64,000 nt of DNA from an uncultured Candidatus Saccharibacteria bacterium. Lineage in GTDB: Bacteria; Patescibacteriota; Minisyncoccia; Phycocordibacterales; CAIZLB01. This document shows positions 31,637 through 62,462 of this stretch, piece by piece. The notes under the pieces were generated by a model, which worked only from the letters and a program-made list of their open reading frames with translations, ran no database searches and had not been told where the DNA came from. The first letter of the stretch is position 1; each line of letters opens with the position of its first letter. The stretch spans positions 22,699 to 86,698 of the forward strand of contig CAYJDM010000005.1 of NCBI GenBank assembly GCA_964368945.1, in the 5' to 3' direction. The position numbers and the translations under genes were made by a program.

Positions 31637-33043
31637 ATGGCAAGCAAACCAAACCAGACAAAAGCACCAGCGACGAAGGCTCCCGCAGCGAAGGCGTCGG
31701 CGAAAGCCGCACCAGTAGCCGGACTTTCCCCTATCAAGACAATCATGGGCCGAGAAATTCTCGACTCGCGAGGAAATCCGACTGTGGAAGTCGATGTCAC
31801 TCTCCGCGACGGCTCATTCGGACGAGCCGCTGTTCCATCAGGAGCATCCACAGGATCATATGAAGCGATCGAGCTTCGAGATGGAGACAAGAAGCGATAT
31901 CTCGGAAAGGGCGTGCTCAAGGCCGTAGCGAATGTGAATGGCCCATTGCGAAAGGCATTGGTTGGAAAATCTTTTACGCAGGAAACTCTCGACCGAGCAA
32001 TGATCGCGCTTGATGGAACTCATAACAAGGCAAAGTTCGGAGCGAATGCAATCCTCGGAATCTCAATGGCTTTCTCACACGCAGCTGCGAAGTCAAAGAA
32101 GATGCCTTTGTTCAAATATTTCGCTCAGATCGCAAAGACTGGCAAGCCGATGTCTCTCCCGCTTCCGATGATGAATATCTTGAACGGAGGAAAGCATGCT
32201 GAAAAGTCTACGGACCTTCAGGAATTCATGGTCATGCCTGTCGGCGCGAAGTCTTGGTCTCAGGCTTTGCAGATGGGAGCTGAAGTTTTCCATGCTCTCA
32301 AGAAAATCCTTCACGATCGAGGACTCGGAACTACGACTGGCGATGAAGGAGGATATGCGCCGTCTCTCGGAAATAATGAAAGCGCGCTCAAGGTCATCCT
32401 CGAGGCGATCGAAAAGGCCGGATACAAGCCTGGAAAGGATATCGGAATCGCAATCGATGCCGCTTCGACTGAATTGTACAAGCCAGGCGAAGGAAGCGTT
32501 GCCGGCGAATCAAAGAACGGCACATATGAGCTCGCATCAGAAAAGCGAACTCTTTCTACGCCGGAAATGGTTGCCTTCTATGCAGACTGGCTTACGAAGT
32601 ACCCTATCGTCTCTATCGAGGACGGATTCTCAGAAGACGATTGGCTCGGATATGAAATGCTTACAAAGCAGTGCGGAAAGAAAGTTCAGATCGTCGGAGA
32701 TGATCTTTTCGTAACGAATATCGACCGACTCAAGACTGGCATCGAGCGAAAGGCTGGAAACTCCATCCTCATCAAGCTCAACCAGATCGGTTCAGTCACT
32801 GAGACAATCGACGCTATCAAGATGGCACATAAGGCCGGCATGACAGCAGTCGTCTCTCATCGATCAGGAGAAACAGAGGACACGACAATCTCTCATTTCG
32901 TCGTCGGACTCGGATGCGGACAGATCAAGACCGGCTCACTCTGCCGAACTGATCGAGTCGCGAAGTATAACGAACTCCTCCGAATCGAAGAGCAATTGGG
33001 TGCGAAGGCGGTGTTTGCTGGAAAGGGCGCGTTTAAGGGTTAG
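31637..33043 (+). CDS. eno: Enolase (phosphopyruvate hydratase) with a 25-aa Ala/Lys/Pro-rich N-terminal extension
   Basis: [27 protein letters not shown], and the catalytic motifs ([20 protein letters not shown]). The N-terminal [29 protein letters not shown] precedes the canonical enolase start. Confidence 0.9.
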
Positions 33044-37486: not shown

Positions 37487-37527
37487 ATATGGAGATAGTA
37501 TAGCATTCCGCAATTAGACATTTTAAA

Positions 37528-38058
37528 TTATGGGAAAATTTCCTGAACTCCTGGCAAGATTCCGAAGTCTATTTTGATTATGCGAGAGCGAGGATTTGCC
37601 GGGTTGAGTAAAAGCGCGAATCTGGTTATGCCATTTTCCGTCGAGGTAGCCCAATGCGCATCCGGGAATCCATCATTCGCGAGAGAAAATAACGACACGA
37701 CAACCCTTGCGCCGGCAGCATGAATGAAGCCGCATTCGATTTCATTTTTGGCCGTTCCAAAATCGCATTCCGCAAAAACGCCAATGCCTTCCTTGCTGAA
37801 AACGATCCTCGTTTGATCGTCGCTGACCTCTGCATAATCCGCTATTTGATTCAGATCGTGCAAATAGACCGCAAGCCGAAGCAAAGATGCATGAGTCTCG
37901 GCTTTTTTGACAATCAGGCTGAGCCTGTCATTGAAAACCCCTGAAGTCTGAACGAAGATCGAAATCGCAATCGCTATGAGCGCGACTGAGATTATCATTT
38001 CGATAAGGGTAAATCCTCGCTTTCGGAGCTTTGCGCTTCTTTTTATCATAATACTCAT
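37528..38058 (-). CDS. Prepilin-type N-terminal cleavage/methylation domain protein (pseudopilin / minor pilin)
   Basis: RKRGFTLIEMIISVALIAIAISIF is the class III signal: G-F-T-L-I-E followed by a hydrophobic helix. Confidence 0.7.
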   Translation of the reverse strand: MSIMIKRSAKLRKRGFTLIEMIISVALIAIAISIFVQTSGVFNDRLSLIVKKAETHASLLRLAVYLHDLNQIADYAEVSDDQTRIVFSKEGIGVFAECDFGTAKNEIECGFIHAAGARVVVSLFSLANDGFPDAHWATSTENGITRFALLLNPANPRSRIIKIDFGILPGVQEIFP

Positions 38059-40563: not shown

Positions 40564-41666
40564 TATCGAATATATTTATTCATCTCATCTTTGGATATCA
40601 AACCTTCATGGAACATATTTTCAACCCTATCCTTCAGCAGCATAATCCCCTCTTCCCTAATCGTCTGTGCGAGACTATTGCTACCTGCCCCATCGGAAAA
40701 CATCAGCGCCGATTTGAATTTCTGATTGAATTGCACGATTTCGAATATGATTTTGGCGCTTGAATGCGTATGGATCTTTCTTTGAGATACGAGCAAATTG
40801 ATGACCTGTGCGCATGCATCTGATTTGATACCGATCGAATTCAATCGGTCGATGATGCCGAGAGCCGAGACGGCATGAATGGTAGCCAATACCAAATGGC
40901 CTGTCAGCGCCGCTTGTATTGCAAGCTCCGCCGTTTCCCTGTCGCGTATTTCACCAACCATGATTACGTCCGGATCCTGCCGCAGCACACTGCGCAGAGC
41001 ATGCGCAAATCCGAATCCTTGCTCTTGCTGAACGACGATTTGCCTTATATTCGGAATGACAACTTCGACGGGATCCTCGAGCGTTACGATGACTTTGGAT
41101 TGTCGGGATAGATGTCTCAAGCATGCATAGAGCGTAGTCGTCTTGCCCGAACCAGTAGGGCCGGAGACCAGGATCAATCCGGAATCCTTATGGAGCGCGG
41201 ATATGAGCATTTCATATTCCTCAGTAGGCAAGCCTATATGCGCCAGATCGAATAAATCGACATTGTTCGAAAATATGCGGCATACGATATTTTCTCCGAA
41301 CACGGTCGGCGCTGTCGATACGCGAATGTACGCCTTGGTTTCAATATGCGATTCCGCATCTTTGTGTCGGAACGTGAATGCACCGTCCTGGCTCTTGTCA
41401 TTTATATCCAATCGCAATCTGGCAAGCACTTTTATCCTGCCTACAATCGAGCGGGCAATTTCATGAGAAATTGATGTGCGGTTTGTTATATTCGTGCCGA
41501 TACGCAAAGTGACCCATGCCGCATATTCGGCAATATCGAGATGAATGTCGCTGGCTTTCAGCAAAATAGCGATTCGACATAATTCGTCGGTTGTCTCGAT
41601 GCTATCGTTGCCGATCAGGCTTGTCTGCATTGCTGGTTTCAGTAAGCGATCATTCATCGCGAACAC
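40563..41666 (-). CDS. pilB: Type IV pilus / T2SS assembly ATPase (PilB/GspE family, short form lacking the N-terminal domains)
   Basis: Walker A VSGPTGSGKTTTL. Asp box and His box (DVIMVGEIRD; TGHLVLATIHA). GspE-type motif DGAFTFRHKD...IRVSTAPTVFGENIVCRI. Confidence 0.8.
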   Translation of the reverse strand: MFAMNDRLLKPAMQTSLIGNDSIETTDELCRIAILLKASDIHLDIAEYAAWVTLRIGTNITNRTSISHEIARSIVGRIKVLARLRLDINDKSQDGAFTFRHKDAESHIETKAYIRVSTAPTVFGENIVCRIFSNNVDLFDLAHIGLPTEEYEMLISALHKDSGLILVSGPTGSGKTTTLYACLRHLSRQSKVIVTLEDPVEVVIPNIRQIVVQQEQGFGFAHALRSVLRQDPDVIMVGEIRDRETAELAIQAALTGHLVLATIHAVSALGIIDRLNSIGIKSDACAQVINLLVSQRKIHTHSSAKIIFEIVQFNQKFKSALMFSDGAGSNSLAQTIREEGIMLLKDRVENMFHEGLISKDEMNKYIR

Positions 41667-47132: not shown

Positions 47133-50100
47133 CTATTCGCCGAGCAAGAACTCCTCAAAATCCCTAATCGCATCGAAGTCATTCTTATACTCCCCTTTCG
47201 CATATTTCTGCGCAATCTCGGCAGGCATTTCGAAATCGAGCGCTTGGATCCGCTGGTATACGGCGACAGCGAGCTTCTTCAATCGATCCGCATCCTCATC
47301 CGTGAGCTCAAGCTCCGCACAATGGATTTCCTTCTTTGTGCCGACCGGCTCTACGAATTCGATGACGCCGAATCTGACATCGGTATTTGCTGCGCCATGG
47401 AGACCCCTCGAAGCAGAGCGCAGTCGCGGGAACAATACCTCGCGGCAATACGCAGAATGCTCGATCAATAATTTATAAAAAAGAAGCTGGTTCTTGTAAT
47501 GATAGCCTTTGATCGCCATCGTCCCAGTCGCGTCCTCAAAAGACTCGAATGCGCGGCCAGTCTTATAATCATGAACCGAAAGCTGATCTTCCGAAATCGA
47601 GACCTTGTCTATTTTTCCTGTAATAAAAGCCCTGCCCTTATTTGGGAAATCCTCATGGCCAATGCCATCGTCCGCATAGCCATCGGCATCGGGATCCACG
47701 ATCAGAATCTGCTCGCGTCCGAAATCCATCTCTGCGATATCCGCATCCTTGAATGTATCAGATCGCTTTGCCATGAATGCCGTCAGGGCTGCCTTGCCAC
47801 GCGATAGGAATAGCTTGAAGTCGGCAGGATGGAGCTTTTCCTTTTTCAAAAACTTCTCGAATTCTGCAAGGATATCATCGATCGGCATCAATTCAGCAGC
47901 CGCATCAGATTTCTCTCTCTTTTTGCCGCCTGTATCGGCTCCAAACTGAGTCTCGTTCGATGTCTCAGTCTTTTTCTTTAGATCCAAAAGGATGCATTCG
48001 AGCGTCGAATGAATCGCAGAACCATATGCGCCGGATGGCGTCTTGCTCTGCGGAAATCGCAGAAGATTCTGCTCAAAGAAAAGCCGCGGTCCGCCCTTCG
48101 GAACATTCAGGAAATTATTCAGATGAGTGACCGACAATTTATAGTTCTCGACAAGGCCGCGGAGCAAGGCATTTTCCTCATCCAAAAATTCAGTCGTATG
48201 ATAAGCCATCTGTGCAGACTCGAGGAGCTCTTCTGCCTCTGGTGCGAATTTTGCTAGTGCCAGCTTGTCGATGCTGCCAACCAAGGCTTCGCTTTCAGGC
48301 ACGGCATCGACGAGGAATCGCAGACGGCTCGCCTTCTTTCCCCCTTCTTTCACTTCATGCGCAGTGAGAATCAGATTATCCTTCGCGCGAGTTAGAGCCA
48401 CATAGAATAGCCGCAGCTGATCGTCCTCTGAGTCGCCGGCTGGCTTTACGGGCAGGTTTATAGGAAAAGGAATTCGGTCCGGCATGCCGCGAGAAGCCCA
48501 GACATCGTCCTGGCATGAGAGCACAAAGACCGTATCGAATTCGAGGCCTTTGGACTTATGCGCGGACATCAGATTCACTGCGCTTCGAGCAGTCACGAAT
48601 GGGCTTTCGTCATTGAGGCTGAGATTGTTTTTCTCATACATATCCACGAACTTCACCAGATCCGCAATCGTCAAATGCCCGCTTAGCGAATCAAATCCGT
48701 CAAATGCGCGAATGGCATTGATAAAAACCCGCAGGCTCGACAAGAACGAAAGGTATTCGGAACGCGCATGAGAAAACTTTTCGCCAGAGAAATAATGCGC
48801 GCGGAAAGGGCTGGTGAATTTCGCATCCGGCTTATCGCTGTCGCGCTCCAAGCCATCATCCAAATCATCCTCCTTATCAGTATCGACGGCCAGTGCGACA
48901 TGAGCGCCGATGATGCGATCGAGGATGAGCTCGAGCGGAGCGCTTTTGGCCTCCACGGAAAGCTCGATCAGGAACTCAGCGATATCTGCCACGCGCTTGC
49001 CATAAGACCCACCATTGGTGTCGCCAAAGCCAGGCTCGCCCATGCTGGCCATGACCTCGAGCCAAGTCTTGCCCGAACGCTTTGCCTCTAGCGAAATATT
49101 CCAGACATCGATCCGGCGAATTCCCCAGAATGGAAAGCTCAGGATCGTCGGAAGGAGATCTTCTTGCGCGCTTTCATGCGGCTGCGAGCCGATCACAGAT
49201 GAAATATACCGAGCGATCATGATGATCTCGCGGATATGCGGCTCGGCGAATACGTTTTGCTCACGCTCATATTTGATAGGCACTTTTTCATTGCGCAAAA
49301 AAGGCACGATCGCCTCGAGATTGGCATGCTTGCGCCCGATAATGGCGATATCCTCAGGCTTTGTGCCAGCGTCGATGAGCTCGCGGATTTTTTGCGCCAC
49401 GAACTTATATTCATGAAGGTGCGTTTCGAAAAGGTGATACGAAACATCGGTCGCAGACCCCATATCGCGTAGAAGAGACTCGGACGTTACGTCCAAGTTT
49501 GTTCGATGCCTAGTGACATCTGATCTGTCTTCAGTTTTGTTCGCCGACTTGAAAGACTTGAGCTGCTTCGACAGATCTGGAATGAGATTCTCGAGGCGCT
49601 TTTCCCCTTTTCTCATAATATTCATAGCGAGATCGAGAATGCCTTGCGTCGAGCGATAATTGTCCGTCATCGATACGAGCCCCACGTCGATATAGCGATG
49701 CCGAAAATCGAGGATATTCGAAAGCTCCGCGCCCTGGAATTTATAGATCGCCTGATCATCATCGCCCACGACCATGATATTCGGCCGGCCGCCATGCTCC
49801 GGAGCGCTGGTGAGCAGCGAGAGGATTCGCATCTGCGCATTGTTGGTATCCTGGAACTCATCGACGAGCAGATACTGGTACTGCTCCTGCAATTCATATC
49901 GCAGCCGTGCATTAGTAGACAGTGCCTGAATCACATCGAGAATCATATCGTCGAAGTCGAAGTAGCCGAGCCTATGCATTTCCGTCTGATAGGCCTTATA
50001 CAAAGCAGCGAAGCTCCGCATGCGCCCGATATTCAATGCATCCTTGAAAACCTTCCGGCCATCGTCATCCTTCACTATCCATTTAGCCTTCCATTTTGAG

Positions 50101-50981
50101 AGAGGCTCGGTCTCGTCTTTTTTGGACGCTTCGCTCAAAGCATCCGCTATCGAGCTCGCGACGGCTTCTTCGATTGAGTGAAAAGCGATGGCGGCAGCGC
50201 TTTTCTCCCCTGACTTTACGCCGCTCTTTTCGCCGCCTTTTTCTTTTGCCTCGCGCGCCTCCTTGACGCGCTTCGAGCCCGCATCAGCCAAAGCCTGAAC
50301 CGCGCGCTCGATGGCACTGAAGTCCTTTTTGCTCAGACGCTCCTCGAATGCAGGCAGAACCGTCGCAGAAATCGTCTCGAACCCCTTTTCATTATCATCG
50401 AGAATCTCAACGAGCTCATGCGGCATGAGGCCGGACTTCTTTATATTCGAAATGGCATTCTGCGTGGCCTTGAGATAAACGAAGCCTTCCTCCGGATGGT
50501 ATGAGCGAAGCGGATCATCATGATCAAGCGCATTGAAAAGATTTTCCAGAACCGAAATCTGCGTAATCGGATCAGCGGCCCTGAATGTCGCTCCATGATA
50601 AAAAAACTCCCCATGCTTGCGAATGATATCGACGCAAAAATTATGGAATGTATGAATGGCGACGCCATATGCGCGCTCGCCTATCAGACGAGACAAGCGA
50701 TCCCGCATATTCTGCGATGCCGAATCGGTAAATGTCAGGCAGAGGATATTGGAAGGCATGGCCTGAGTCTCCTTGAGGATCTGCGCCACTCGCATGCCCA
50801 GGATTTCGGTCTTGCCTGACCCTGGCCCCGCGACCACCAGCAAAGGGCCATCTATCGTGTCTACGGCCTTCTTTTGGGCGGAATTGAGCTTTGCATAGCG
50901 CTGGCTGAACACATGCTCAAAGCCATGCTCAGGCCCATTCTGGGCATTGTTTTGGGCCTTTGTAGAGGGCTTCATATGCAT
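47133..50981 (-). CDS. UvrD/AddA-family ATP-dependent DNA helicase with C-terminal PD-(D/E)XK (RecB-type) nuclease domain
   Basis: Walker A VVAGPGSGKTE, motif II LLVDEFQDTN, helicase motifs through VI. C-terminal FITGKIDKVS...VHDYKTG nuclease motif. Confidence 0.85.
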   Translation of the reverse strand: MHMKPSTKAQNNAQNGPEHGFEHVFSQRYAKLNSAQKKAVDTIDGPLLVVAGPGSGKTEILGMRVAQILKETQAMPSNILCLTFTDSASQNMRDRLSRLIGERAYGVAIHTFHNFCVDIIRKHGEFFYHGATFRAADPITQISVLENLFNALDHDDPLRSYHPEEGFVYLKATQNAISNIKKSGLMPHELVEILDDNEKGFETISATVLPAFEERLSKKDFSAIERAVQALADAGSKRVKEAREAKEKGGEKSGVKSGEKSAAAIAFHSIEEAVASSIADALSEASKKDETEPLSKWKAKWIVKDDDGRKVFKDALNIGRMRSFAALYKAYQTEMHRLGYFDFDDMILDVIQALSTNARLRYELQEQYQYLLVDEFQDTNNAQMRILSLLTSAPEHGGRPNIMVVGDDDQAIYKFQGAELSNILDFRHRYIDVGLVSMTDNYRSTQGILDLAMNIMRKGEKRLENLIPDLSKQLKSFKSANKTEDRSDVTRHRTNLDVTSESLLRDMGSATDVSYHLFETHLHEYKFVAQKIRELIDAGTKPEDIAIIGRKHANLEAIVPFLRNEKVPIKYEREQNVFAEPHIREIIMIARYISSVIGSQPHESAQEDLLPTILSFPFWGIRRIDVWNISLEAKRSGKTWLEVMASMGEPGFGDTNGGSYGKRVADIAEFLIELSVEAKSAPLELILDRIIGAHVALAVDTDKEDDLDDGLERDSDKPDAKFTSPFRAHYFSGEKFSHARSEYLSFLSSLRVFINAIRAFDGFDSLSGHLTIADLVKFVDMYEKNNLSLNDESPFVTARSAVNLMSAHKSKGLEFDTVFVLSCQDDVWASRGMPDRIPFPINLPVKPAGDSEDDQLRLFYVALTRAKDNLILTAHEVKEGGKKASRLRFLVDAVPESEALVGSIDKLALAKFAPEAEELLESAQMAYHTTEFLDEENALLRGLVENYKLSVTHLNNFLNVPKGGPRLFFEQNLLRFPQSKTPSGAYGSAIHSTLECILLDLKKKTETSNETQFGADTGGKKREKSDAAAELMPIDDILAEFEKFLKKEKLHPADFKLFLSRGKAALTAFMAKRSDTFKDADIAEMDFGREQILIVDPDADGYADDGIGHEDFPNKGRAFITGKIDKVSISEDQLSVHDYKTGRAFESFEDATGTMAIKGYHYKNQLLFYKLLIEHSAYCREVLFPRLRSASRGLHGAANTDVRFGVIEFVEPVGTKKEIHCAELELTDEDADRLKKLAVAVYQRIQALDFEMPAEIAQKYAKGEYKNDFDAIRDFEEFLLGE

Positions 50982-51013
50982 ATCATTATACCGCGCTGTG
51001 GATATTGGCTATG

Positions 51014-51042
51014 GTTGACTTTTTACATAAAAGGTGCTATTA
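51014..51042 (+). promoter_or_regulatory. Consensus-like sigma70 promoter TTGACT-17-TATTAT
   Basis: Hexamers at 51014-51019 and 51037-51042. Shares TTGAYTTTTTACATAAAA with the element at 10744. Confidence 0.5.
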
Positions 51043-51138
51043 TATATATGCCAGATTGTTCCTTAAGCCCTCCTGCATGCAGGAGCAAAACGACCAACCC
51101 GCCGGAGCGATCCGGCACAACCCAAAAACCAAACCAGT

Positions 51139-51378
51139 ATGTACAGCTATTGGATCGAAGTGCTCGTCATAGGCATACTTACGGTGCTCTGCATGTATGC
51201 GGTGCCCGTAATCCTCAACGAGCTAATCACAAGGCTACTCCGTCGCCGCGCGAAATCGACAGGATATGCGATCGATGATACGGCCTTGCAAAACAAGGCG
51301 ATCATTATCACCGCAAGTATCATCGCCCTGGCGGTAATCACAGCCTTGCTGATTTCGAGGATCTACCCGATCCTCTGA
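51139..51378 (+). CDS. Small (79 aa) two-TM membrane protein
   Basis: Two hydrophobic helices flanking a basic loop (RLLRRRAKS). Bracketed by a strong promoter and a terminator. Confidence 0.5.
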   Translation: MYSYWIEVLVIGILTVLCMYAVPVILNELITRLLRRRAKSTGYAIDDTALQNKAIIITASIIALAVITALLISRIYPIL

Positions 51379-51406
51379 GCAGGACCACCGTCAAAACCAT
51401 ACGAAT

Positions 51407-51432
51407 AAAGGCCCGGCAACTGCCGGGCCTTT
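51407..51432 (+). terminator. Intrinsic terminator (AAAGGCCCGG caactg CCGGGCCTTT + TTTTG)
   Basis: Perfect stem and T-run. Confidence 0.65.
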
Positions 51433-51470
51433 TTGTCGCCATGATGAATGGCGATGCTTTGTATGGGCCG

Positions 51471-51677
51471 CTATTTGCGACCCGCCTCCCCTTTGCTTTG
51501 CGACGAGGGCTTTTGCTTTTCAGGACTGAAGATCCTTTTATGGTCCCGAACGAGATATGCCGCGCCGATGAGCGCGAGGAGAAGGCATGCGCAGACGAAG
51601 AGCGCCGCGATCAACCTGATAATCGTATTCCTGTCTGAAGGTGCGAGATGCGTGTTCAATTGCGTGGGTGGTTGCAT
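51471..51677 (-). CDS. Small (68 aa) hypothetical membrane protein
   Basis: One TM helix (IIRLIAALFVCACLLLALIGAAYLV). Weakly supported. Confidence 0.25.
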   Translation of the reverse strand: MQPPTQLNTHLAPSDRNTIIRLIAALFVCACLLLALIGAAYLVRDHKRIFSPEKQKPSSQSKGEAGRK

Positions 51678-51943
51678 GCCCTTTCGGGCATCGGTTTGGA
51701 GAATTCTGTGTGAAAGAGAGGTCGAAATTCGACTGTGAATCGCATTGGGAGGAACCTGCTCTGACCATCAGAATACAATAGATTCATCATTATATCAATA
51801 TGTAGCAAAATTGCCCGGGCATGCATTGATATGTCGGGGCCTGATTCTATGTCCGGATTTCATCGCCAGGTATCCCTTACCCGGTAACAAAACGCGCCTC
51901 CTTCATGCGGATTGTGTATCTCTACAACAAGCAGAAATAGAAA

Positions 51944-52003
51944 AAACCTCACCGTTCTGCTTCCTTGCAAAAATGCGCAAATCAGCAGAACGGCGAGGTT
52001 TTT
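51944..52003. terminator. Bidirectional terminator after rpoD (14-bp stem with one mismatch, 24-nt loop)
   Basis: CCTCACCGTTCTGC ... GCAGAACGGCGAGG with T-runs on both strands. Confidence 0.5.
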
Positions 52004-52012
52004 TATTTCTGA

Positions 52013-53347
52013 CTAATAGTTCTTCAACCGATTCACCTTCTCATGCTGGCGGATCTTTTCATGAGCTTTGGCTTCGATCTGTCGGATTCGCTCTCGCGTT
52101 ACGCCGAACATCTTGCCTACTTCTTCGAGCGTATGCTGGATGCCATCCGTGAGGCCATGTCGGAGCGCGAGGATTTCTCGCTCTTTTTCCGAAAGGTCGC
52201 CGAGGATTTCAGTGACCTGATCCGCAAGGATTCGTCGAGATGATTCCTGATCAGGAGAGAGGATTTTATCATCAGGGATAAAATCTCCGAACATCGACTT
52301 GTCATCGCCATCATCACCGACTGGCGCATCCAATGAAACCGTATTCTGATCGATTTTCTCAATCATATATACCTTCTCTGGCTCGATTCCCATCTCAGTC
52401 GCGATTTCCTCTGGCAAAGGCTCTCGTCCCAAATCCTGGAACAATCGTCGCACTACCTGCTTATACTTCGCAATCGTTTCAACCATATGCACGGGAACTC
52501 GGATCGTTCGGGACTGATCAGCGAGGGCTCGCGTGATCGACTGTCGAATCCACCATGTCGCATATGTCGAGAATTTGAATCCCTTTGACCAATCGAATTT
52601 GTCTACGGCCTTGAAGAGACCGAGGTTTCCTTCCTGAATCAAGTCGAGCAATGTGAGATCAGGGCTTCGGTTCGCATATTTCTTGGCGATAGAAACCACG
52701 AGTCGGAGGTTTGCTTTGGCAAGGAGATTCTTTGCCTCCATATCTCCGAGCGCAATTCGCTTTGCGAGCTCTTTTTCCTCATGCGCATTGATGAGAGGAT
52801 ACTGGCCGATTTCCTTGAGATACATCTGGATGGAGTCATATGTATCGCTCTTTGCAGTTCCATATTTTTTCAAAATATCCTCAGCATCCTTATTGAAATC
52901 AAGCAATCCTCCTCCTTCGAGAACATCCACCCCGGCAACCGACAGCGTATTGTAGAGCTCTTCGAGGAAGATAACATCGTCCTCGATATGCGGGAATGAT
53001 TTGAGGATTTCATCATATGTCACGAAGCCGCGATCCTTTCCCTTCTGGATCAAATCAACCGCCCTTTCTTCCATTGACCCTCGAGTGGGCTTTCCTTTCT
53101 TTGGATGCTGTGCGGTCTCGATCACATTCGACAAGGACATATCGGCAGCATGAAGACCATGCGTCTTTTTTGACGACTTTGGCTTATAGGCTTTCGGACC
53201 TTTCATTTTCGGCTCTTTTACCTTGGCGACTTTTGGCTGTTTTGCTGGCTTCGGCGCTTTTGCTGCTTTCGCAGTCACTTTCTTTGCGGCTTTCTCAGGC
53301 TTTGACGGCTTCGATGGCTTGCTTTTGATTTTTGTTTTTTGTGGCAT
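52013..53347 (-). CDS. rpoD: RNA polymerase sigma-70 factor with ~65-aa Lys/Ala/Pro-rich N-terminal tail
   Basis: Region 2 (DLIQEGNLGLFKAVDKFDWSKGFKFSTYATWWIRQSITRA), region 3, region 4.2 (LTLEEVGKMFGVTRERIRQIE). N-terminal KPSKPSKPEKAAKKVTAKAAKAPKPAKQPK... Confidence 0.9.
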   Translation of the reverse strand: MPQKTKIKSKPSKPSKPEKAAKKVTAKAAKAPKPAKQPKVAKVKEPKMKGPKAYKPKSSKKTHGLHAADMSLSNVIETAQHPKKGKPTRGSMEERAVDLIQKGKDRGFVTYDEILKSFPHIEDDVIFLEELYNTLSVAGVDVLEGGGLLDFNKDAEDILKKYGTAKSDTYDSIQMYLKEIGQYPLINAHEEKELAKRIALGDMEAKNLLAKANLRLVVSIAKKYANRSPDLTLLDLIQEGNLGLFKAVDKFDWSKGFKFSTYATWWIRQSITRALADQSRTIRVPVHMVETIAKYKQVVRRLFQDLGREPLPEEIATEMGIEPEKVYMIEKIDQNTVSLDAPVGDDGDDKSMFGDFIPDDKILSPDQESSRRILADQVTEILGDLSEKEREILALRHGLTDGIQHTLEEVGKMFGVTRERIRQIEAKAHEKIRQHEKVNRLKNY

Positions 53348-53405
53348 ATATTTTATTGGCTTTCTATTAATTGTTTTATGTTATGAAAAATTTTTTGCTT
53401 TCCTG

Positions 53406-55448
53406 TCATCTTTTCTGTCTGTGAAGCTCTGATAGTCGAAGGGAGATTTCTTGACACTTGCGGATTATTTCGTCTGATCTTACCTTATCTCTGGAACTCT
53501 CAGCAAGGGATAATTCGGACATATGCTTGCTTAATTTCTGCTTGAGCGATCGTTCTTCGAGCTCATACAGAAGATCGAAGAGATGCCTGCGCAGATTCTC
53601 TATCTGCGCTTCTATTTTTCCATCAGACTGGGCGAAAAACGCCTCGCCCTCGAACAATAATTCATCGCGATTATTCGCGCGCAATTCCGCTATCTGCTTT
53701 GCCTCATCTCCCTGCACGAAAACAGCGAAGCGCTCTTCGGCATCGTCGCGGACTTTCTTGTATTTTTCAGCATGGGCGGCATTTGCGACTGGCTTGCCCG
53801 CATCAGCATCAGCGTTCGTGCCACCCGCCTTTTCCATGAGTGATTCTATATACGTCATGAGAGCCAGAGTCCTGCGCATAGCCACATCGACCGGAGTCTT
53901 TGCCTCGATATGGTCTTGGCTCGCATACATCTTTCCGCCCATCACTTTTTCATTGCCGATATAATCAGCGGAATCATTCGATGACCCGGACGATCCCTTT
54001 GAATCTGACTTTGAGGCGGATGATTTCGACGATGACGATTGAGAAAAAGAGCTGAGTCCAAGTATTGATTCGCGGCCATCGATGGCGATCTTTTGAACCA
54101 GGGCATCGACCTCATCGCTGATTCTCTTTTCGTCGATCTTTGACTTCAGGCCTCTCGCCGCGACAAGCGAGATCAATTCGCCTCGCTTGATAGAGCTTGG
54201 CGTAAGGGCGATATCCGGCACGATTTCCTTCTCCAAAGCCTTGATTAATTCATGGCGCATCTTGTCCCCTCCTCTATCATTACCATCCGCATCGACATCC
54301 GAATATTTTTCCATCAAGACGCCCAGATAATATTCCACGACATGCGTAGACTTCTTGAGGGCTTCGACGAATGCCGCCTTGTCCTTCACGATGAGAGAAG
54401 CCGGATCCTCGCCCTTTGGCAAAGTCACGACTTTCACATCGAAGCCCTGCTCGATCGCCAATCGCTCCCCTCTTCGCGTAGCGCCATAGCCGGCATTGTC
54501 GGCGTCGTACATGAAGATGAGATTCTTCGTCATGCGGCCGATTTTTTCCAAATGAAGAGAAGTCAAGGCCGTTCCCGATGTAGCGACGGTATTCTCGACG
54601 CCGATCTGATGCGACATGAGCAAATCCATCTGGCCCTCTACCAGAATCACATAGCCCCATTTGCGAATGGCATGCTTGGCGCGATCGAATCCATACAATA
54701 GCTCTGACTTATTGAAGACCTGGCTGTCCGGGCTATTGAGATATTTTGCCGAGGCGCCATCCACCGCTTCTTTGCCAAAGATTCTGCCAGAAAACCCTAC
54801 GACACGTCCTGACGAATCGAATAATGGGAACATGATGCGCGAACGGAATCGGTCATAGCATTTGCGCTGACCATTCTCCAAGCTCTGCTTGATCAAGCCG
54901 ACCTGCTCCATCTCATCGAGCGAGATCAGATGCCCTTCGATTTTCTGATTGATGAGATATGACGAAACCGATCGCCATTCATCCGGCGCATATCCGATCT
55001 TCCAATCCTTGGCGCTTTGCTCCGTCAATCCTCGATCAAACAGATATCTCAAAGCATCTGCTCCAGGTGCCGGCTTGGCAAGCCACAAAAGCCGCGCATA
55101 AAACTCCATGGCCATTTCCAGGATCTTGTACTGACGCTCGCTTTTCTTATAGGCATCCGATTTGAATTCATCGAGAGGCACGCCCGCGCGCTCAGCCAGC
55201 ACCTTGAGGGCGCCTAGGAAATCCATCTTTTCATATTCCTGAACGAAGGTGAAGATATCCCCTTTCTGTCCGCAACCGAAGCAATAATAATTGTTTCGGG
55301 ATGGCGAGATGAAGAATGACGGAGTTTTTTCATTGTGAAAAGGACACCGCGCCTTGAAATTGGCGCCGGCGCTTTCCACCTTGATATACGAACTGATTAC
55401 ATCAACGATACCGAGTCGTTCCTTGATGCGTTCAGCTGTTGAGGCCAT
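53406..55448 (-). CDS. dnaG: DNA primase
   Basis: CHC2 zinc finger (CPFHNEKTPSFFISPSRNNYYCFGCGQKGD), RNA-polymerase domain, TOPRIM (EGQMDLL...YDADNAG), and a Ser-rich C-terminal linker. Confidence 0.9.
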   Translation of the reverse strand: MASTAERIKERLGIVDVISSYIKVESAGANFKARCPFHNEKTPSFFISPSRNNYYCFGCGQKGDIFTFVQEYEKMDFLGALKVLAERAGVPLDEFKSDAYKKSERQYKILEMAMEFYARLLWLAKPAPGADALRYLFDRGLTEQSAKDWKIGYAPDEWRSVSSYLINQKIEGHLISLDEMEQVGLIKQSLENGQRKCYDRFRSRIMFPLFDSSGRVVGFSGRIFGKEAVDGASAKYLNSPDSQVFNKSELLYGFDRAKHAIRKWGYVILVEGQMDLLMSHQIGVENTVATSGTALTSLHLEKIGRMTKNLIFMYDADNAGYGATRRGERLAIEQGFDVKVVTLPKGEDPASLIVKDKAAFVEALKKSTHVVEYYLGVLMEKYSDVDADGNDRGGDKMRHELIKALEKEIVPDIALTPSSIKRGELISLVAARGLKSKIDEKRISDEVDALVQKIAIDGRESILGLSSFSQSSSSKSSASKSDSKGSSGSSNDSADYIGNEKVMGGKMYASQDHIEAKTPVDVAMRRTLALMTYIESLMEKAGGTNADADAGKPVANAAHAEKYKKVRDDAEERFAVFVQGDEAKQIAELRANNRDELLFEGEAFFAQSDGKIEAQIENLRRHLFDLLYELEERSLKQKLSKHMSELSLAESSRDKVRSDEIIRKCQEISLRLSELHRQKR

Positions 55449-55544
55449 AGGTTTTGGGTTGAGATTTTTTGTAAAGGTCGCCGTGACTTAAGCGAGCCTT
55501 TTGATAAATCCCGAGCACATAGTTCTTGACGCGATTACGCGTTC

Positions 55545-58500
55545 CTATGCATTCAAGTATTCGTCTGTATCTCCGTTCGCGTACGAATCGTGAAGATCCT
55601 GGATCATCTTGTTCTTCGGGCTTCCCTTGAATCCGGTTCCGGCAGGGATCAATCGTCCGATGATGACGTTTTCCATGATTCCATAAAGCTGATCCGGCTG
55701 TGCCTTCAATGATGCGCCGATGAGGATTCGGTTCGTATGCTGGAACGATGCCGCCGAGAGAACGCTTCTTCGCGAAAGCGATGCTTCCGTGATTCCCATG
55801 GCTACATGCTCTCCCTTCGCCTCGATTCCGCTATTGTTTCGAGCCTTTCGGTTTTCTACATCCATTTCTACGCTTTCGACATGGTCGCCGACTGCGAATG
55901 GAGTGCTGCCCGCTTCCTTGACCCTCTGTCGTGAGAACATCTGTCGCACGATGATTTCGATATGCTTTCGGTTCAAGCTATCTCCCTGCAACTCGTAAAT
56001 CTTCTTTACTTCATTGATGATGTATTCCTGAGCAGCGCTCTGTCCGGCATACTTGTAAAGCTCTTCGATATCCGCATGACCGTCAGTGAGGATGTCTCCC
56101 TTCGATACATGCTGATTCGCCTTTACAGTAGGAACTCGCGGGTGATGGAAGAGGTATTCCGTCTCGACGATCTTCTTGCCCTTTGCAGGAGCATCAGGAA
56201 TGATCTTGATGATTCGGTCTCGTCCGGCCTCTCGCACTTCGCTGATGACGCCATCAACCTTTGCGATGATCGCAGGGTGCTTAGGCGCTCGAAGCTCGAA
56301 CAATTCTTCTACTCGCGGCAAACCGGCTGTGATATCTCCTCCGACTACGGCTACACCTCCTGAGTGGAAGGTACGCATAGTAAGCTGAGTTCCCGGCTCT
56401 CCAATCGCCTGTGCGGCAACCGTACCGACGGCTTCTCCGAGGTCTGTCATCTTGCCCTTGGCAAGATCCATACCGTAGCAAGCTGCGCAGATTCCAAGCT
56501 CAGTCTTGCAAGAGAGCGGAGATCGCACTGCCAATTCGATGATTCCCTGGCTTTCGAGAACGAGGGCATCGTCCTTTGTCAAAAGATGGCCTCGCTTGAA
56601 GATGACTGCTCCATCAGCATTCGTCACATCCTTGGCGACGATTCGTCCAGTGGCAGACTTCACGTATGATTGAGAGATTCCTGATGCGGTCTTGTGGGTG
56701 ATCGTAATCGATTCCTTCGTTCCGCAATCGTCTTCGGTGATCATGATGTCCTGAGCGACAACGAAGAGTCGTCGCGTAAGGTATCCGGCCTTCGCTGTGT
56801 TCAAGGCAGTATCGGTCATACCCTTTCGCACGCCGTGAGTCGTAATGAAGTATTCAATCGGAGTAAGTCCTTCCTTGAATGATGATGTGATCGGAAGCTC
56901 GATCGTCTCTCCCTGAGAGTTTTGGATCATACCCTTCATACCCACCATCTGCGTAAGCTGACCCATCGAACCTCGCGCTCCTGAGATAACCATGTCATAG
57001 ACCGGGCTATTTCGATCAAGAGTTCGAGCTACATGTGATTCAACTTCTGCCTTGGCATCCTGCCAGATTCCGATGATCTTTCGAGTCTTCTCGTCTGCAG
57101 CGAGCAATCCATCATTGTAATCCGCAGTAACGACATCGGATTTGACCCGAGCTCGTTCTACTACTTCATGCTTCTCTGGCTGAACGACGATGTCATCGAT
57201 AGACCAAGTGACGCCTGACTTAGTCACATATTTGAATCCGAAATCCTTAAGCTTATCGATAAGCACAGGAACATTATCAAGGCCTACGAGATTGACGGTA
57301 TCCTTGATGATTCCGCTCATAACTGACTGTGTGACTTCCTTATTCACATATGCATATGTATCTGCAAGGAGATTGTTGAAAAGAATTCGTCCGACCGTAG
57401 TCTCGAATACCTTTCCTTCGAATTCAGCGAACTTAGGAGTCTCAGGAGCGAGGACCTTGATGATCGTTCGGTATGAGATCTGATCGAAGTTCAAAGCCTG
57501 AATAGCTTCGTCCGGACCAGAGAAAGCCTTGCCTTCTCCCTTTTCTCCTGGAACATGCTTCGTCATCCAGAATGCTCCGAGCACGATATCGAGCATCTTA
57601 TTCGTAACAGTCGGCTCTCCTGTTCCCGGCTTCAAGATGTTCTTGCTAGACTGCATGATTTCTCGTGCCTCAAGCTGAGCTTCTTCGGACAATGGAACGT
57701 GGACGGCCATCGTATCTCCGTCGAAGTCGGCGTTGAATGGAGAACAAACGAGAGGGTGAACCTGGATCGCATTACCTTCTGTCAAAACCGGCTGGAAAGC
57801 CTGGATAGACAATCGGTGAAGCGTAGGGGCTCGGTTCAAGAGAACGTATTTATCCTTGATGATCTGCTCGAGGATTGCCCATACTTCTGGAATACCATCA
57901 TCGATCAATCGAGATGCGCCTCGAATATTGAAGGCCATTTCTCGCTTGAGCAATTCTGAGATAACGAATGGTCGGAACAATTCCAATGCCATATGCTTTG
58001 GAAGTCCGCACTGGTTGAGCTTGAGGTTTGGACCTACGACGATTACTGATCGTCCAGAGTAGTCCACTCGCTTTCCGAGCAAGTTCTGTCGGAAGAGACC
58101 TCGCTTGCCCTTGAGGTTATCGGCAATAGACTTGAGCGGTCGTCGCTGAGCCGCGCCCATTCCTGCATATACGGTAGAACCATGTCGGATCGAGTTGTCG
58201 ATCAAGGCATCTACGGCTTCCTGCAAGATTCGCTTCTCATTTCGAAGGATGACGTCCGGAGCATTGATCTCTCGTAGCTTTCGAAGTCGATTGTTTCGGT
58301 TGATAACTCGTCGGTAGAGATCGTTAACATCAGAAGTGGCATGTCGTCCGCCTTCCAATGCAACCATAGGTCGGAGACCTGCTGGAATTACAGGGAGAGC
58401 ATTGATGAACATCCATTCAGGTCGAACATTCGCCTGAGCGAGGGATTTGACGACTGAGATTCGTCGGAGGATCTTGTCTCGATCGACAGCGGATGCCTTA

Positions 58501-59234
58501 TCGACATTTGATTCGAGCTCTGTAAGGAGCTTTTTGACATCGAGAGTCTTGAAAATATTGTGAACAGCTTCTGCGCCGATGCCAGCCTCGAATGAAGATC
58601 CATATCGGAGAGAGAATTTATGGTATGCGACTTCGTCGAGAACGCGTCCGATCTGAATGCTTTCGATATCAGTCTTTGCGCCCATGAGCAATTCGATAAG
58701 AGCCTCCTTGGTCTTTTCATCCTGAAGAGTCTTTACCTTATTCTTATATTCGCTATCGAGCTCTCGGAGGAGTCGGGCTTTTTCTTCCTCATTGACCTTG
58801 GTGATCAAATATCCGGCGAAGTAGATAACCTTCTCCACTTCTCCAGCATTCATTCCGAGAACCTGTGCGATTCGAGAAGGAAGAGTTCGCAAGTACCAGA
58901 TATGAGAAACGGGCACGCAAAGCTCGATATGGCCCATTCGCTCTCGTCGAACGATTGATCGCGTAAGCTCTACTCCGCACTTCTCGCAGACGATTCCCTT
59001 ATATCGAATTCCCTTATACTTTCCGCAATAACATTCGAAATCCTTTTCAGGACCGAAGATTTTCTCATCGAAAAGACCATTCTTCTCGCTTCGCTGCGTT
59101 CGGTAGTTCATCGTCTCCGGCTTCGTCACCTCGCCATGAGACCATTCTCGGATTCGCTCAGGAGATGCGAGCTTGAGGACGATTGAGTCGAATGCATCCA
59201 CGCTTTTTTCCTTGATTGTTCTTGAAGTTTTCAT
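55545..59234 (-). CDS. rpoC: DNA-directed RNA polymerase subunit beta'
   Basis: Zn-finger [27 protein letters not shown] active site, and bridge-helix / trigger-loop motifs. Confidence 0.95.
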
Positions 59235-59279
59235 AATTGTGTTTTTTTGTGTAGGTTTTAGATAAAAGTTGGATGCGGC

Positions 59280-62200
59280 TTAAATCGAATCATCTTCAAT
59301 CAATTCTCCAATTCGACCGTCTTTTTGGAGTTCTACATCGATGCCGAGACCTCGCAGGTTCGCCAACAATACATTGAACGATGCGGGAGCATTAGGCTCG
59401 ATCAATCGCTGGCCCTTTACGATAGAGTCGAAAGCCTGAGATCGTCCGACGATATCGTCCGACTTGATCGTAAGCATTTCTCGGAGCATATGAGCGGCTC
59501 CATAACCTGCGAGCGCCCACACTTCCATTTCTCCGAATCGCTGACCTCCTGACTGCGCCTTTCCTCCGAGAGGCTGCTGCGTGATCAAAGAGTAGGGACC
59601 GATAGATCGCATATGGATCTTATCCTCGACCATATGGTGAAGCTTCAACATATACATGTATCCGACTGATACGTCCTGCTCGAACTTTTCTCCAGTTCGT
59701 CCATCGAAAAGCTTCTGCTTTCCAGTCTCAGGGATTCCCTGAGCAACGAGCTCTGCCTTGATTTCCTCAACCGTCGCGCCCATGAATGGAGGGACGATAG
59801 CCTGATATCCGCCCTTTGCAGCAGCGAGACCGAGGTGAAGTTCCATGATCTGTCCGAGGTTCATTCGAGAAGGCACACCGAGCGGAGTAAGGATCATATC
59901 CACAGGAGTACCGTCAGCCATGAATGGCATATCTTCGACAGGAAGGACTCGTGAGATGACACCCTTGTTTCCATGTCGTCCAGCGAACTTATCTCCGACA
60001 GTCGCATTTCGAAGAAGCGCGACCTCGATATGGATTCGCTTGATGATTCCAGATTCGAGCTTATCGCCTCGCTCTCGCGAGAATACCTTGACGCCGATGA
60101 CTCGTCCTCGCTTTCCATTTTCGAGTCGCTTAGATGAATCCTTAACGTCTCGAGACTTTTCTCCGAAGATTGATCGGAGGAGTCGCTCTTCAGGCGTAAG
60201 CTGCGTTTCAGACTTCGGAGTGATCTTTCCTACGAGGATATCTCCTGGCCGAACTTCTGCGCCGATTCGAACGATGCCGTCTACATCGAGGTTCTTGAGC
60301 TTGCCTTCTCCGACATTCGGAATGTCATGAGTAGTGACTTCGGGCCCAAGCTTCGTATCTCGAACATTGATTTCGAATTCTTCGAGGTGCACGGTCGTGA
60401 ACTTCGATTCTCGAACCAATCGCTCAGAAATGATGATGGCATCTTCATAGTTCGCGCCAGACCATGTCATGAATGCGATGAGCGCATTCTGTCCGAGCGC
60501 GATCTGACCATTGTCAGTCGTAGAAGCATCAGCGAGAATATCTCCTCGCTTTACTTTCTGATTAGGGAAAACAACCGGTCGCTGATGGAAAGCCGTGAAC
60601 TGGTTAGACTTTTCGAATGCGACGAGCTTGTATTCAATGTCCTTCTTTGGACCCTTGAAAACGATCTTCTGCGCATCTACATATGTGATAGTTCCATCAT
60701 CTGGAGCCACGATTACTCGTCCTACATCGAGAGCTGCTTTTTCTTCAATTCCCGTAGCAACGAAAGGAGCTTCAGGAACGATTACAGGCGTAGCCTGCTT
60801 CTGCATATTCGATCCCATCAAGGCTCGCGTACCATCATCATTGCTTACGAAAGGAATCATCGATGTAGAGATCGAGAATGCCTGCTCTGTAGCAACGTCC
60901 ATGAGATCCACATCAGTAGCAAGTACGATCGCAGGCTTGCCCTTGAGTCGTACCTCTACGCGCTCTTCCTTGATCTTCATATTCGTATCATACGGAGTCG
61001 CAGCGTGGGCGATTCTGAAGCCTTCTTCTTCGAGGGCGTTCAAATAGATGATTTCAGACGTGATCTTTCCATTCTTTACCTTTGCATATGGAGTCTCGAT
61101 CATGCCGAAATGGTTGATTCGAGCATATGTAGCAAGCTGAAGAACGAGACCGATGTTCGGACCTTCAGGCGTATGGATCGGACAGATTCGTCCATAATGA
61201 GAAGGGTGTACGTCTCGAACTTCGATACCTGCTCGCTCTCGCGTAAGTCCGCCGGGACCGAGGGCTGAGATTCGTCGCAAGTGCTCTAGCTCTGAGAGGA
61301 CATTTTCCTGGCTCATGAACTGTGATAGCTGGTTCGTCGTGAAGAATTCCTTTACTCGAGCCTGGAGAGGTCGAGGAGAGATGAAGTTCACAGGCAATGT
61401 CGCATCAGTATCAATAGTAGACATTCGGTTCTGAATGTTTCGCTTGATCTGAGTCATACCGATTCGAACCTTCTGCTGGAGCATTTCTCCAACCAATCGC
61501 ACTCGTCGAGATCCCATATGGTCGATATCGTCGATTTCCGCCGCAGGATTATGGTTGAGCTCGATCATATGCATGATGCTCGTAACGAGATCGTCAAGAG
61601 TGAGCGCCATCTGGCTGAGATTCTTCTCATCCATAGGCTTGCCGAATCGCTGATTGAATCGGAATCGTCCGACTCGCGAGAATTCATATCGCTCCGTGCT
61701 GAAAAGCGCCGAGATATGCTCTTTGGCGTTTTCTGGAGTGGCGAGGTCGCCATCTCGAAGCTTTCGGTAGATTTCTACATATGATTCGTCAGATGTCTTG
61801 GCATGATCCTTTGCCAAAGTAACCTCGAGGTGAGGCTTAGCATACTTGCTTGTCTTGAATAGGTCGTAGATTTCCGTATCAGTATCCACTCCGAAGATTC
61901 GAAGAAGCGAAGAAACCGGGAATTTTCGCTTTCGATCGATCTTTACCATCATCGCGCCATCCGCTTCCGTCTCGATCTCAATCCATGCGCCTCGTGCTGG
62001 AATGATCTTCGTTCCGAAATAGCTCTTTCCCTTGAGTTCATTTGCTGTGAAAAACACACCGTATGATCGCGCGAGCTGAGGCACGATCAATCGCTCGATA
62101 CCATTGATGATGAACGTACCGTGCTCAGTCATGACAGGGAAGTCGGCCATGAATACTTCCTGCTCCTTCTCAGTATTGAGGATCTTGTTCTTGACTCGAA

Positions 62201-62462
62201 CCATCACCTTGAGAGGGGCTTCGAAGTTGACCTTATTGGCCTTGGCATATGCCTCGTCGTATTTGGGCTTCTGAAGCTCGAATCCCGTAAAGTCGAGCTC
62301 GAATTTCTTTCCTGTAAAATCCTGGATTGAAGAGAATTCTCCGAATACGTCTTTCAATCCCTGTTCCTGAAGCCATTTGAATGAATCAAGCTGAGCCTCA
62401 ACCAGGTTTGGCATCGGTGTCAGCGGCTCCTTAAATTTTGAAAAATATTTCTTTGGGCGCAT
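59280..62462 (-). CDS. rpoB: DNA-directed RNA polymerase subunit beta
   Basis: Rifampicin-cluster region (QLSQFMSQENVLSELEHLRRISALGPGGL), GDKFAGRHGNKGV, and C-terminal motifs. Confidence 0.95.
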   Translation of the reverse strand: MRPKKYFSKFKEPLTPMPNLVEAQLDSFKWLQEQGLKDVFGEFSSIQDFTGKKFELDFTGFELQKPKYDEAYAKANKVNFEAPLKVMVRVKNKILNTEKEQEVFMADFPVMTEHGTFIINGIERLIVPQLARSYGVFFTANELKGKSYFGTKIIPARGAWIEIETEADGAMMVKIDRKRKFPVSSLLRIFGVDTDTEIYDLFKTSKYAKPHLEVTLAKDHAKTSDESYVEIYRKLRDGDLATPENAKEHISALFSTERYEFSRVGRFRFNQRFGKPMDEKNLSQMALTLDDLVTSIMHMIELNHNPAAEIDDIDHMGSRRVRLVGEMLQQKVRIGMTQIKRNIQNRMSTIDTDATLPVNFISPRPLQARVKEFFTTNQLSQFMSQENVLSELEHLRRISALGPGGLTRERAGIEVRDVHPSHYGRICPIHTPEGPNIGLVLQLATYARINHFGMIETPYAKVKNGKITSEIIYLNALEEEGFRIAHAATPYDTNMKIKEERVEVRLKGKPAIVLATDVDLMDVATEQAFSISTSMIPFVSNDDGTRALMGSNMQKQATPVIVPEAPFVATGIEEKAALDVGRVIVAPDDGTITYVDAQKIVFKGPKKDIEYKLVAFEKSNQFTAFHQRPVVFPNQKVKRGDILADASTTDNGQIALGQNALIAFMTWSGANYEDAIIISERLVRESKFTTVHLEEFEINVRDTKLGPEVTTHDIPNVGEGKLKNLDVDGIVRIGAEVRPGDILVGKITPKSETQLTPEERLLRSIFGEKSRDVKDSSKRLENGKRGRVIGVKVFSRERGDKLESGIIKRIHIEVALLRNATVGDKFAGRHGNKGVISRVLPVEDMPFMADGTPVDMILTPLGVPSRMNLGQIMELHLGLAAAKGGYQAIVPPFMGATVEEIKAELVAQGIPETGKQKLFDGRTGEKFEQDVSVGYMYMLKLHHMVEDKIHMRSIGPYSLITQQPLGGKAQSGGQRFGEMEVWALAGYGAAHMLREMLTIKSDDIVGRSQAFDSIVKGQRLIEPNAPASFNVLLANLRGLGIDVELQKDGRIGELIEDDSI

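Follow-up and report, generated by a model that had tools for sequence, protein, structure and literature searches.

Basic, disordered tails are already known from bacterial housekeeping proteins. The group 1 sigma factors SigA (M. tuberculosis) and HrdB (Streptomyces) of Actinobacteria carry a long unstructured N-terminal segment, and in Parcubacteria the ribosomal protein uS19 ends with a lineage-specific, Ala/Lys-rich C-terminal region of about 25 aa (Tsurumaki et al. 2022, PMC9297842). Lys/Ala/Pro-rich, disordered, low-complexity tails of the PAKKA/AKP type are present in mycobacterial Ku and HupB, and for M. smegmatis Ku the PAKKA tail is reported to influence how the protein binds DNA (PMC3553676). 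The C-terminal domain of linker histone H1 and AlgP are likewise K/A/P-dominated and disordered; AlgP, a histone H1-like protein, is described as helping the even spacing of polyphosphate granules, i.e. as associating with a polyanion (PMC9239181). In SimR, a TetR regulator, a disordered basic N-terminal extension is reported to add contacts to the DNA minor groove (PMC3241653).

In the window, i.e. the whole stretch of 64,000 nucleotides analysed here, which comes from an uncultured, ultra-small bacterium of the Patescibacteria (CPR), Paceibacteria (Parcubacteria) group, such tails are found at the N-termini of two proteins, the sigma factor RpoD and enolase. The former resembles SigA and HrdB in being a group 1 sigma factor with a long unstructured N-terminal segment, but it comes from a CPR bacterium, its tail is not as long and is followed by a region 1.1 that can be recognised, and the protein as a whole becomes net basic through the tail. 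PDB chains of SigA and HrdB (466-550 aa) align to it from query residue ~197, corresponding to chain residues ~227-310, and leave unmatched a long N-terminal part, which we take to be rich in Lys, Ala, Thr and Pro. Homology of the tail to those of the actinobacterial sigma factors cannot be established because of their low complexity; since Actinobacteria have long unstructured tails on their primary sigma factors, a feature like the tail of RpoD is to be expected, here in a new lineage. The uS19 tail is like those of the window in occurring in the same bacterial group, in being A/K-rich and in its location on a housekeeping protein, but it is C-terminal and belongs to an RNA-binding ribosomal protein, whose gene lies outside the window. 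The tails of Ku and HupB are C-terminal tandem repeats on DNA binders, whereas those of the window are N-terminal, do not form an array and in one case are carried by a glycolytic enzyme. Compared with H1 and AlgP, the window proteins lack a winged helix and, in their tails, any S/TPKK motif or Pfam match, and the likeness is one of composition, not homology. In mechanism, the SimR extension can be likened to the sigma tail, although it is short, Arg-rich and located on a specific repressor of an unrelated family.

Enolase is linked to RNA metabolism elsewhere, as a component of the E. coli RNase E degradosome and as the RNA-binding human ENO1. The enolases concerned are acidic and free of basic tails, and either a partner peptide recruits them or they bind RNA with their body; for the window enolase, RNase E, RNase Y or another such partner was not identified. 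In the literature searched, a Lys-rich extension at the N-terminus of a bacterial enolase was not found described, nor directly a lysine-rich sigma tail in CPR bacteria, and no solved enolase structure was found to cover such a tail, in keeping with the first-pass annotation of this DNA, which had called a tail of this kind on enolase unusual. Among housekeeping proteins with basic disordered tails, enolase is a new bearer.

Sequence and structure of the two tails

RpoD is encoded by an ORF of 444 aa (positions 52013-53347, minus strand). Pfam detects Sigma70_r1_1 (aa 97-147), r1_2, r2, r3 and r4, each above its cut-off, and in the PDB, SigA chains match best (E 3e-99), sigma chains aligning to the protein only from query residue 91 or beyond. 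The dnaG gene is located immediately upstream of rpoD, in the window as well as in six related loci. With all regions and the dnaG-rpoD context present, the protein is a group 1 (primary) sigma-70 factor. Three segments can be told apart in it. The N-terminal polycationic tail, defined by composition, pLDDT below 50, homologues and dN, comprises codons 1-65 (53153..53347, minus strand); this is exactly the stretch in which about 65 aa of basic low-complexity sequence had been noticed initially. It is made up of K (35%), P (15%), A (14%), S (8%), T (5%) and V (5%), with a net charge of +21 and a pI of 10.7 over the 65 aa. A non-repetitive linker follows, delimited by alignment and pLDDT (codons 66-88, 53084..53152, minus strand; HAADMSLSNVIETAQHPKKGKPTRG), which is kept only in the four closest relatives and for which disorder is predicted too. 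The conserved body (52013..53083, minus strand), outlined by Pfam, alignment and PDB matches, contains regions 1.1, 1.2, 2, 3 and 4 together with the stop codon, and is acidic (pI 5.5). In the AlphaFold2 model, built with homologue alignments, residues 1-87 have a pLDDT below 50 and no secondary structure, and the first helix starts at residue 89.

The enolase ORF, on the plus strand, is 468 aa long (31637-33043). Its basic tail, recognised by composition, homologues and a pLDDT below 50 (residues 1-26), spans codons 1-29 (31637..31723, plus strand), so that the extension reported at first does exist, its length being 28-29 rather than 25 aa; A (38%), K (17%) and P (14%) predominate, and aa 1-29 have a net charge of +5 and a pI of 10.6. 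The catalytic body (31724..33043, plus strand) is formed by the Pfam domains Enolase_N, starting at aa 33, and Enolase_C, the TIM barrel (E 4e-56 and 2e-124, respectively), and is itself basic, with a pI of 8.98. PDB enolases match the protein with E 9e-160, in alignments which begin only at query residues 25-36. The AlphaFold2 model has a pTM of 0.84; residues 1-26 have a pLDDT below 50 and are devoid of secondary structure, and strand β1 is formed by residues 33-42. By its domains, PDB matches and model, the protein is a phosphopyruvate hydratase. The bodies of both RpoD and enolase are modelled with confidence, and the Lys-rich stretches of both lie outside known domains, as Pfam region 1.1 begins at residue 97 and Enolase_N at residue 33. 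The neighbourhood of the enolase gene consists of Dus, enolase, iPGM and pilus genes, and inspection of these loci did not provide a functional hint.

The best 25-residue windows of the two tails contain 19/25 and 20/25 K, A or P residues, corresponding to probabilities of ~9e-10 and ~6e-11 against the window's own amino-acid frequencies (K+A+P = 0.189), with fewer than 2e-5 such cases expected in the whole window; the next-highest ORF reaches a K/A/P fraction of 0.56 per 25-residue stretch. A chance origin of the two K/A/P-rich tails is excluded. The window has a GC content of 48.7%, and its proteome has a median pI of 6.2 and a median Lys content of 6.2%. A proteome-wide drift towards lysine, considered as the source of the tails, was ruled out on the basis of this median pI and of the occurrence of tails in only two families among 232 ORFs of ten loci.

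Other origins and known motifs were also evaluated. Tandem Repeats Finder detected in rpoD only a 9-bp x 2.6 SKP repeat and nothing in eno, and repeat slippage was rejected as the origin of the tails, no repeat array being found in the DNA. A Sec or Tat signal peptide was likewise rejected, for lack of a hydrophobic h-region, the longest hydrophobic run being of 2 residues in both tails. PAKKA and S/T-P-K/R-K/R (SPKK-type) motifs are both absent from the two tails (0 occurrences of each); a Pfam scan of the tail peptides gave no meaningful match even at E<=10, and the winged-helix globular domain PF00538 was found neither in the full proteins nor, at E<=10, in the tails. The resemblance to H1, HrdB and HupB initially proposed holds for composition; given the lack of Pfam matches and of PAKKA and S/TPKK motifs, 'H1-like' and 'HupB-like' describe that composition and not family membership.

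Distribution among relatives

Homologues were collected from sources labelled Paceibacteria or Parcubacteria, the labels of the best matches including Candidatus Taylorbacteria, Pacebacteria, Parcubacteria and Lloydbacteria. The alignment of orthologues, which had been proposed as a check of tail conservation, revealed a basic tail in 120/120 of the nearest sigma homologues, about 49-148 aa long ahead of region 1.1, and a tail of at least 10 aa (10-59 aa) in 78/111 evaluable enolase homologues, while the other 33 have none; if shorter ones are included, enolase tails range from 5 to 59 aa. The enolase tails are largely confined to homologues at roughly 80% identity or more, and remoter enolases begin canonically. 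In a library of clusters at 50% identity, sigma tails are found in nearly all the closest representatives, and at least 37/125 evaluable sigma representatives, down to an identity of ~40%, have a strongly basic 30-residue stretch before region 1.2; one of the basic-tailed representatives is from Kiritimatiellia.

Judging from these distributions, the sigma tail arose earlier and more widely than the enolase tail, the two having different depths. The idea that the two proteins acquired their tails together does not agree with this picture, in which one tail extends from all of the nearest sigma factors to many remoter ones and the other is limited to an enolase subclade. A tail-less enolase (P0101) and a tailed sigma factor (P0215) appear to be encoded on one and the same contig of 693,708 bp.

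Terminal basic tails made of K, A, P, S, T and V were also searched for in the 232 ORFs of the window and of nine related Paceibacteria loci, where only those of enolase and sigma were found. Within these sampled loci the tails are protein-specific. The census covers mostly rpoB-rpoC-dnaG-rpoD and Dus-eno-iPGM neighbourhoods, sampled repeatedly; as synteny is strongly conserved, the loci are largely redundant, and ribosomal and nucleoid proteins fall outside the sample. A lineage-wide use of such tails, suggested at the outset, is therefore borne out within each of the two families, whose orthologues keep them, but does not extend to other proteins of the ten loci. As for uS19, a lineage-restricted, A/K-rich terminal extension kept by relatives can be recognised, from homologue alignments, in both sigma and enolase.

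Pooled sigma tails (n=118) are composed of K (35%), A (13%), V (9%), S (8%), P (8%) and T (7%), with +0.33 charges per residue, and pooled enolase tails of at least 5 aa (n=86) of K (27%), A (18%), S (13%), P (9%), T (8%) and V (8%), with +0.26 per residue. Neither W nor C occurs, Y and F do not exceed 0.3%, and D+E amount to ~3% in sigma and ~1% in enolase.

Charge and possible roles of the tails

Both tails are best read as translated, disordered, polycationic N-terminal extensions, most likely acting as non-specific electrostatic tethers to polyanions, a reading to which we assign a probability of about 0.5. The sequence of the tails evolves fast, while selection keeps their composition (Lys plus Ala, Pro, Ser, Thr and Val) and charge. 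Their ligand and cellular role we infer as follows. The sigma tail (about +21 here, +20 to +40 in general), placed ahead of region 1.1, probably adds sequence-independent contacts with DNA, which may help the holoenzyme in promoter search or in promoter complexes, in the manner of the basic disordered extensions of other DNA-binding proteins, Ku with its PAKKA tail (PMC3553676) and SimR (PMC3241653). The enolase tail probably adds to the effect of a charge-inverted body, and would keep the enzyme on RNA, on the nucleoid or on an RNA-processing assembly, an anionic envelope or membrane being a less likely site; RNA or the nucleoid is the most economical guess because of the parallel with sigma and uS19. 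Against tethering, the enolase tail of the window is short and carries only +5, and enolase is not a nucleic-acid enzyme. The tail is dispensable for catalysis, as relatives without it exist (33/111).

The charge of the enolase body was compared among homologues. A collection scan with the window enolase, saturated by universal motifs, provided only one close relative, from Taylorbacteria, and 74 non-CPR loci, the latter serving as a charge control. The body has a median pI of 8.73 and a net charge of +4 in tailed homologues (n=78), and a median pI of 8.62 and a net charge of +4 in tail-less close homologues (n=33), to be compared with medians of 4.72 and -23 for non-CPR enolases (n=62); a Vogelbacteria enolase has a pI of 4.98. 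Since tail-less close homologues are equally basic, the inversion of body charge is older than the tail, and in the same direction. The combined charge of body and tail argues for directional selection toward polyanion binding.

The tails could also have no specific ligand at all, being a tolerated low-complexity expansion or an 'entropic bristle' or solubility segment under weak compositional selection. Their fast turnover is what such segments would display, identity among the closest sigma factors being 0.62-0.71 in the tail against 0.97-0.99 in the core, and so are the widely varying lengths (5-59 aa in enolase, 49-148 aa in sigma) and the lack of a tail in 33 of the 111 close enolase homologues. 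A merely tolerated segment is harder to reconcile with a tail in all of the 120 nearest sigma factors, with the strict exclusion of W, C and Y (near 0) and a D+E content of ~1-3%, with its restriction to two protein families among 232 ORFs and with an enolase body inverted in charge in the same way. Taken together, universality, residue exclusion, two-family restriction and body inversion speak for positive charge as the target of directional selection, not for tolerance, and we regard the absence of a ligand as unlikely.

A more specific version of the tethering reading, which we put forward as speculation and consider doubtful, is that the enolase of a Paceibacteria subclade was re-engineered in two steps for a nucleic-acid-bound role, the body first moving from about -23 to about +4 and a polylysine-type tail being added later. 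The enzyme would then be recruited to an RNA-degradation or RNA-processing assembly, or would belong to a glycolytic module tethered to the nucleoid. If true, this would be a partner-independent route to an association of enolase with RNA, reached in other bacteria by scaffolding on RNase E or RNase Y; an enolase with inverted charge and a Lys tail would, in that event, represent a clean natural case of a metabolic enzyme made polyanion-binding.

Alternatively, the enolase tail and basic body might anchor a moonlighting surface or membrane enolase to anionic cell-wall polymers, to lipids or to the surface of a host cell. In lactobacilli, enolase binds lipoteichoic acid electrostatically, in a pH-dependent manner. 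Adhesive surface enolases are widely reported in bacteria and parasites (e.g. PMC3374825), many CPR bacteria live as episymbionts, with which an anchor of this type would agree, and the charge inversion of the whole enzyme would favour any polyanion, envelope polymers included. The tail does not contain, however, a hydrophobic stretch resembling a signal peptide, and the protein is cytoplasmic by default; moreover, sigma binds DNA and is obligately cytoplasmic, and the tail of the same kind that it carries suggests that the two proteins share nucleic acids as their ligand. On this balance surface anchoring looks rather improbable.

For sigma, median net charges are +24 for the tail, -8 for region 1.1 plus linker and +12 for the whole protein: the tail turns a normally acidic sigma factor into a net basic one. 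It might act mainly within the molecule, by pairing with the acidic region 1.1 and linker and thereby tuning auto-inhibition or the way in which region 1.1 is ejected from the channel of RNA polymerase. The tail is directly N-terminal to region 1.1, a region reported to control both the release of sigma and the formation of promoter complexes (PMC12478191, PMC7641759), and the charges of tail and region 1.1 are negatively correlated (rho -0.24, p 0.04, phylogeny-uncorrected). This correlation is weak, and the +24 of the tail is about three times the acidic charge of region 1.1 plus linker, leaving a large excess; the correlation may leave room for an intramolecular role, which as the main function of the tail we consider improbable.

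Returning to tethering as the preferred reading, CPR genomes are tiny and encode few regulators, and cheap charge tethers on core machinery may therefore replace dedicated factors. A tail on the only housekeeping sigma factor, present in 120/120 of the nearest homologues, is relevant to the way in which promoters are located by bacteria that, judging from the genes of the window, have no Shine-Dalgarno sequences and many promoters of the leaderless type.

Translation starts

The tails might be an annotation artefact, if the true starts were located downstream (M37 in enolase; M48, M70 or M92 in RpoD) and longest-ORF calling had added untranslated frame. Internal in-frame ATGs do exist. M92 of RpoD sits just before region 1.1, and enolase, originally described as having no alternative ATG, has one at M37 (31745..31747, plus strand), the sole alternative start, 2 codons upstream of the R that is conserved in REILDSRG. 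One Lloydbacteria RpoD is given in NCBI as 360 aa, the rest of its 90% cluster as 452-454 aa, which indicates that some annotators chose a downstream sigma start. Since start-site annotations disagree, the tails are easily lost from databases; Tsurumaki et al. (PMC9297842) warn that whether a CPR protein has an N-terminal extension hinges on how its start was predicted.

The internal ATGs are nevertheless implausible starts. In five CPR enolases without a tail, the start codon is located exactly 9 codons ahead of the conserved Arg of REILDSRG. The only start codons of the window enolase are at -38 and -2 relative to this residue; it has none at the canonical position, where a start is not consistently present in the tailed relatives either. 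Translation from M37 would cost the protein half of strand β1 and 7 residues that are conserved, and most homologues have V or I at this position; similarly, M92 of sigma is not conserved among homologues. In the sigma tail 32/65 codons, many of them for Lys, are one substitution away from a stop, yet the frame is open in all of the 120 homologues over about 49-148 codons, and the tails of the 78 enolase homologues (10-59 aa) are likewise open and uniform in composition. The sigma tail ATG follows the dnaG stop codon after gaps of 5-95 nt across seven loci. In the window, a TAAAAT -10-like box (53350..53355, minus strand), included in the 58-nt gap after dnaG, ends 2 nt before that ATG, whereas a -10 box is not found upstream of enolase M37, and the sequences upstream of sigma M48, M70 and M92 match one in 4/6 positions at best.

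Substitution rates were estimated for the closest genes. In the four closest sigma genes, where the Lys columns are aligned and all indels are in frame, dN is 0.24-0.30 for the tail and 0.015-0.03 for the core, with dS at least 0.9, and in the closest enolase pair it is 0.26 for the tail, against a dS of 0.85, and 0.025 for the core; tail dN is thus ~10x core dN and well below dS, the dN/dS values being qualitative only because dS is saturated (~1 or undefined). These patterns, read from the aligned genes, indicate that both tails are genuinely translated, with composition and charge held by selection, and we judge an annotation artefact very improbable.

A Shine-Dalgarno-like motif is present in 0/25 well-supported genes of the window. 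The tails might accordingly be thought of as an RNA-level feature, an A-rich, unstructured 5' coding region compensating for absent Shine-Dalgarno sequences in a lineage where many N-termini start with MKK, MPK or MAK, but this is hardly credible, as the sigma tail has a GC content of 46% against 48% in the rest of the gene and uses AAG for 9/23 Lys codons, the tails extend for 29-148 codons, far past any initiation window, selection is seen at the amino-acid level, and other genes of the same genome are without tails.

As a separate observation on gene starts, a TATAAT box matching in at least 5/6 positions ends 2-10 nt before the ATG at 23/46 ORF starts, compared with 4.7% of all ATG trinucleotides. 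This suggests that leaderless initiation may be widespread in the lineage, which, if so, matters for the calling of start codons in its genomes.

Charge of the enolase body and annotation of the sigma start

The charge of the enolase catalytic body is inverted in this CPR clade. In the window enolase (31724-33043, plus strand) and its homologues (P0001-P0120), the body is basic, with a median pI of about 8.7 and a net charge of +4, irrespective of the tail; the corresponding values for the 62 non-CPR enolases among the comparison loci (L002-L080) are pI 4.7 and net charge -23. A Vogelbacteria enolase (L005) remains acidic, at pI 4.98.

The start of sigma differs between public annotations. One Lloydbacteria RpoD is annotated at NCBI as a 360 aa protein (OGZ11819.1), while the remaining members of its 90% cluster (P0241) measure 452-454 aa, and some database entries lack the basic tail because of this disagreement in annotated starts. 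Antisense ORFs are found over both tails (RpoD, 53017-53328, plus strand; enolase, 31618-31920, minus strand); they are 100-103 aa long and Leu/Ser/Phe-rich or Ala/Phe-rich in composition, and were rejected as genes, being shadows of the Lys/Ala codons.

Translation initiation

Shine-Dalgarno-like motifs were found upstream of none of 25 well-supported window genes. A TATAAT box (at least 5/6 match), ending 2-10 nt 5' of the ATG, accompanies 23 of the 46 ORF starts in the window, against a background of 4.7% of all ATG trinucleotides. Examples of this pattern are the starts at 10662, 24398, 26123, 50981 and 63897 on the minus strand and at 45020 and 45615 on the plus strand. Taken together, the position of the boxes and the missing Shine-Dalgarno motifs point to widespread leaderless mRNAs.

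Gene neighborhoods

Two gene blocks of conserved synteny are found repeatedly across Paceibacteria, as revealed by comparison with loci L081-L092: rpoB-rpoC-dnaG-rpoD-(small ORF)-UvrD/PDDEXK helicase-nuclease-DsbA-RNaseH-like-HisRS-TruB (47133-62462), and Dus-enolase-iPGM-(hypotheticals)-T2SSF-T2SSE pilus genes-TruB-HisRS (30086-41666). Within the former, DnaG (53406-55448, minus strand) is, at 680 aa, longer than its relatives (559-663 aa), and contains an internal low-complexity Ser-rich segment, SSFSQSSSSKSSASKSDSKGSSGSSNDS, at about aa 465-500.

Within the latter, the Dus ORF (tRNA dihydrouridine synthase; 30086-31405, minus strand) encodes 439 aa, compared to 388-404 aa in several relatives, and its listed start may therefore be over-extended. 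The eno-dus intergenic region carries a strong promoter-like site on the minus strand (31502-31529; TTGACT-16-TATAAT with TG, 11/12 match). On the other side, between enolase and iPGM, three short putative ORFs of 136, 103 and 100 aa (33469-34641, minus strand) show an unusual Arg/Lys-rich composition, e.g. KRKTPQQKYERARKKPARKSAKRRR; small, unannotated hypothetical genes occupy the same interval in related loci.
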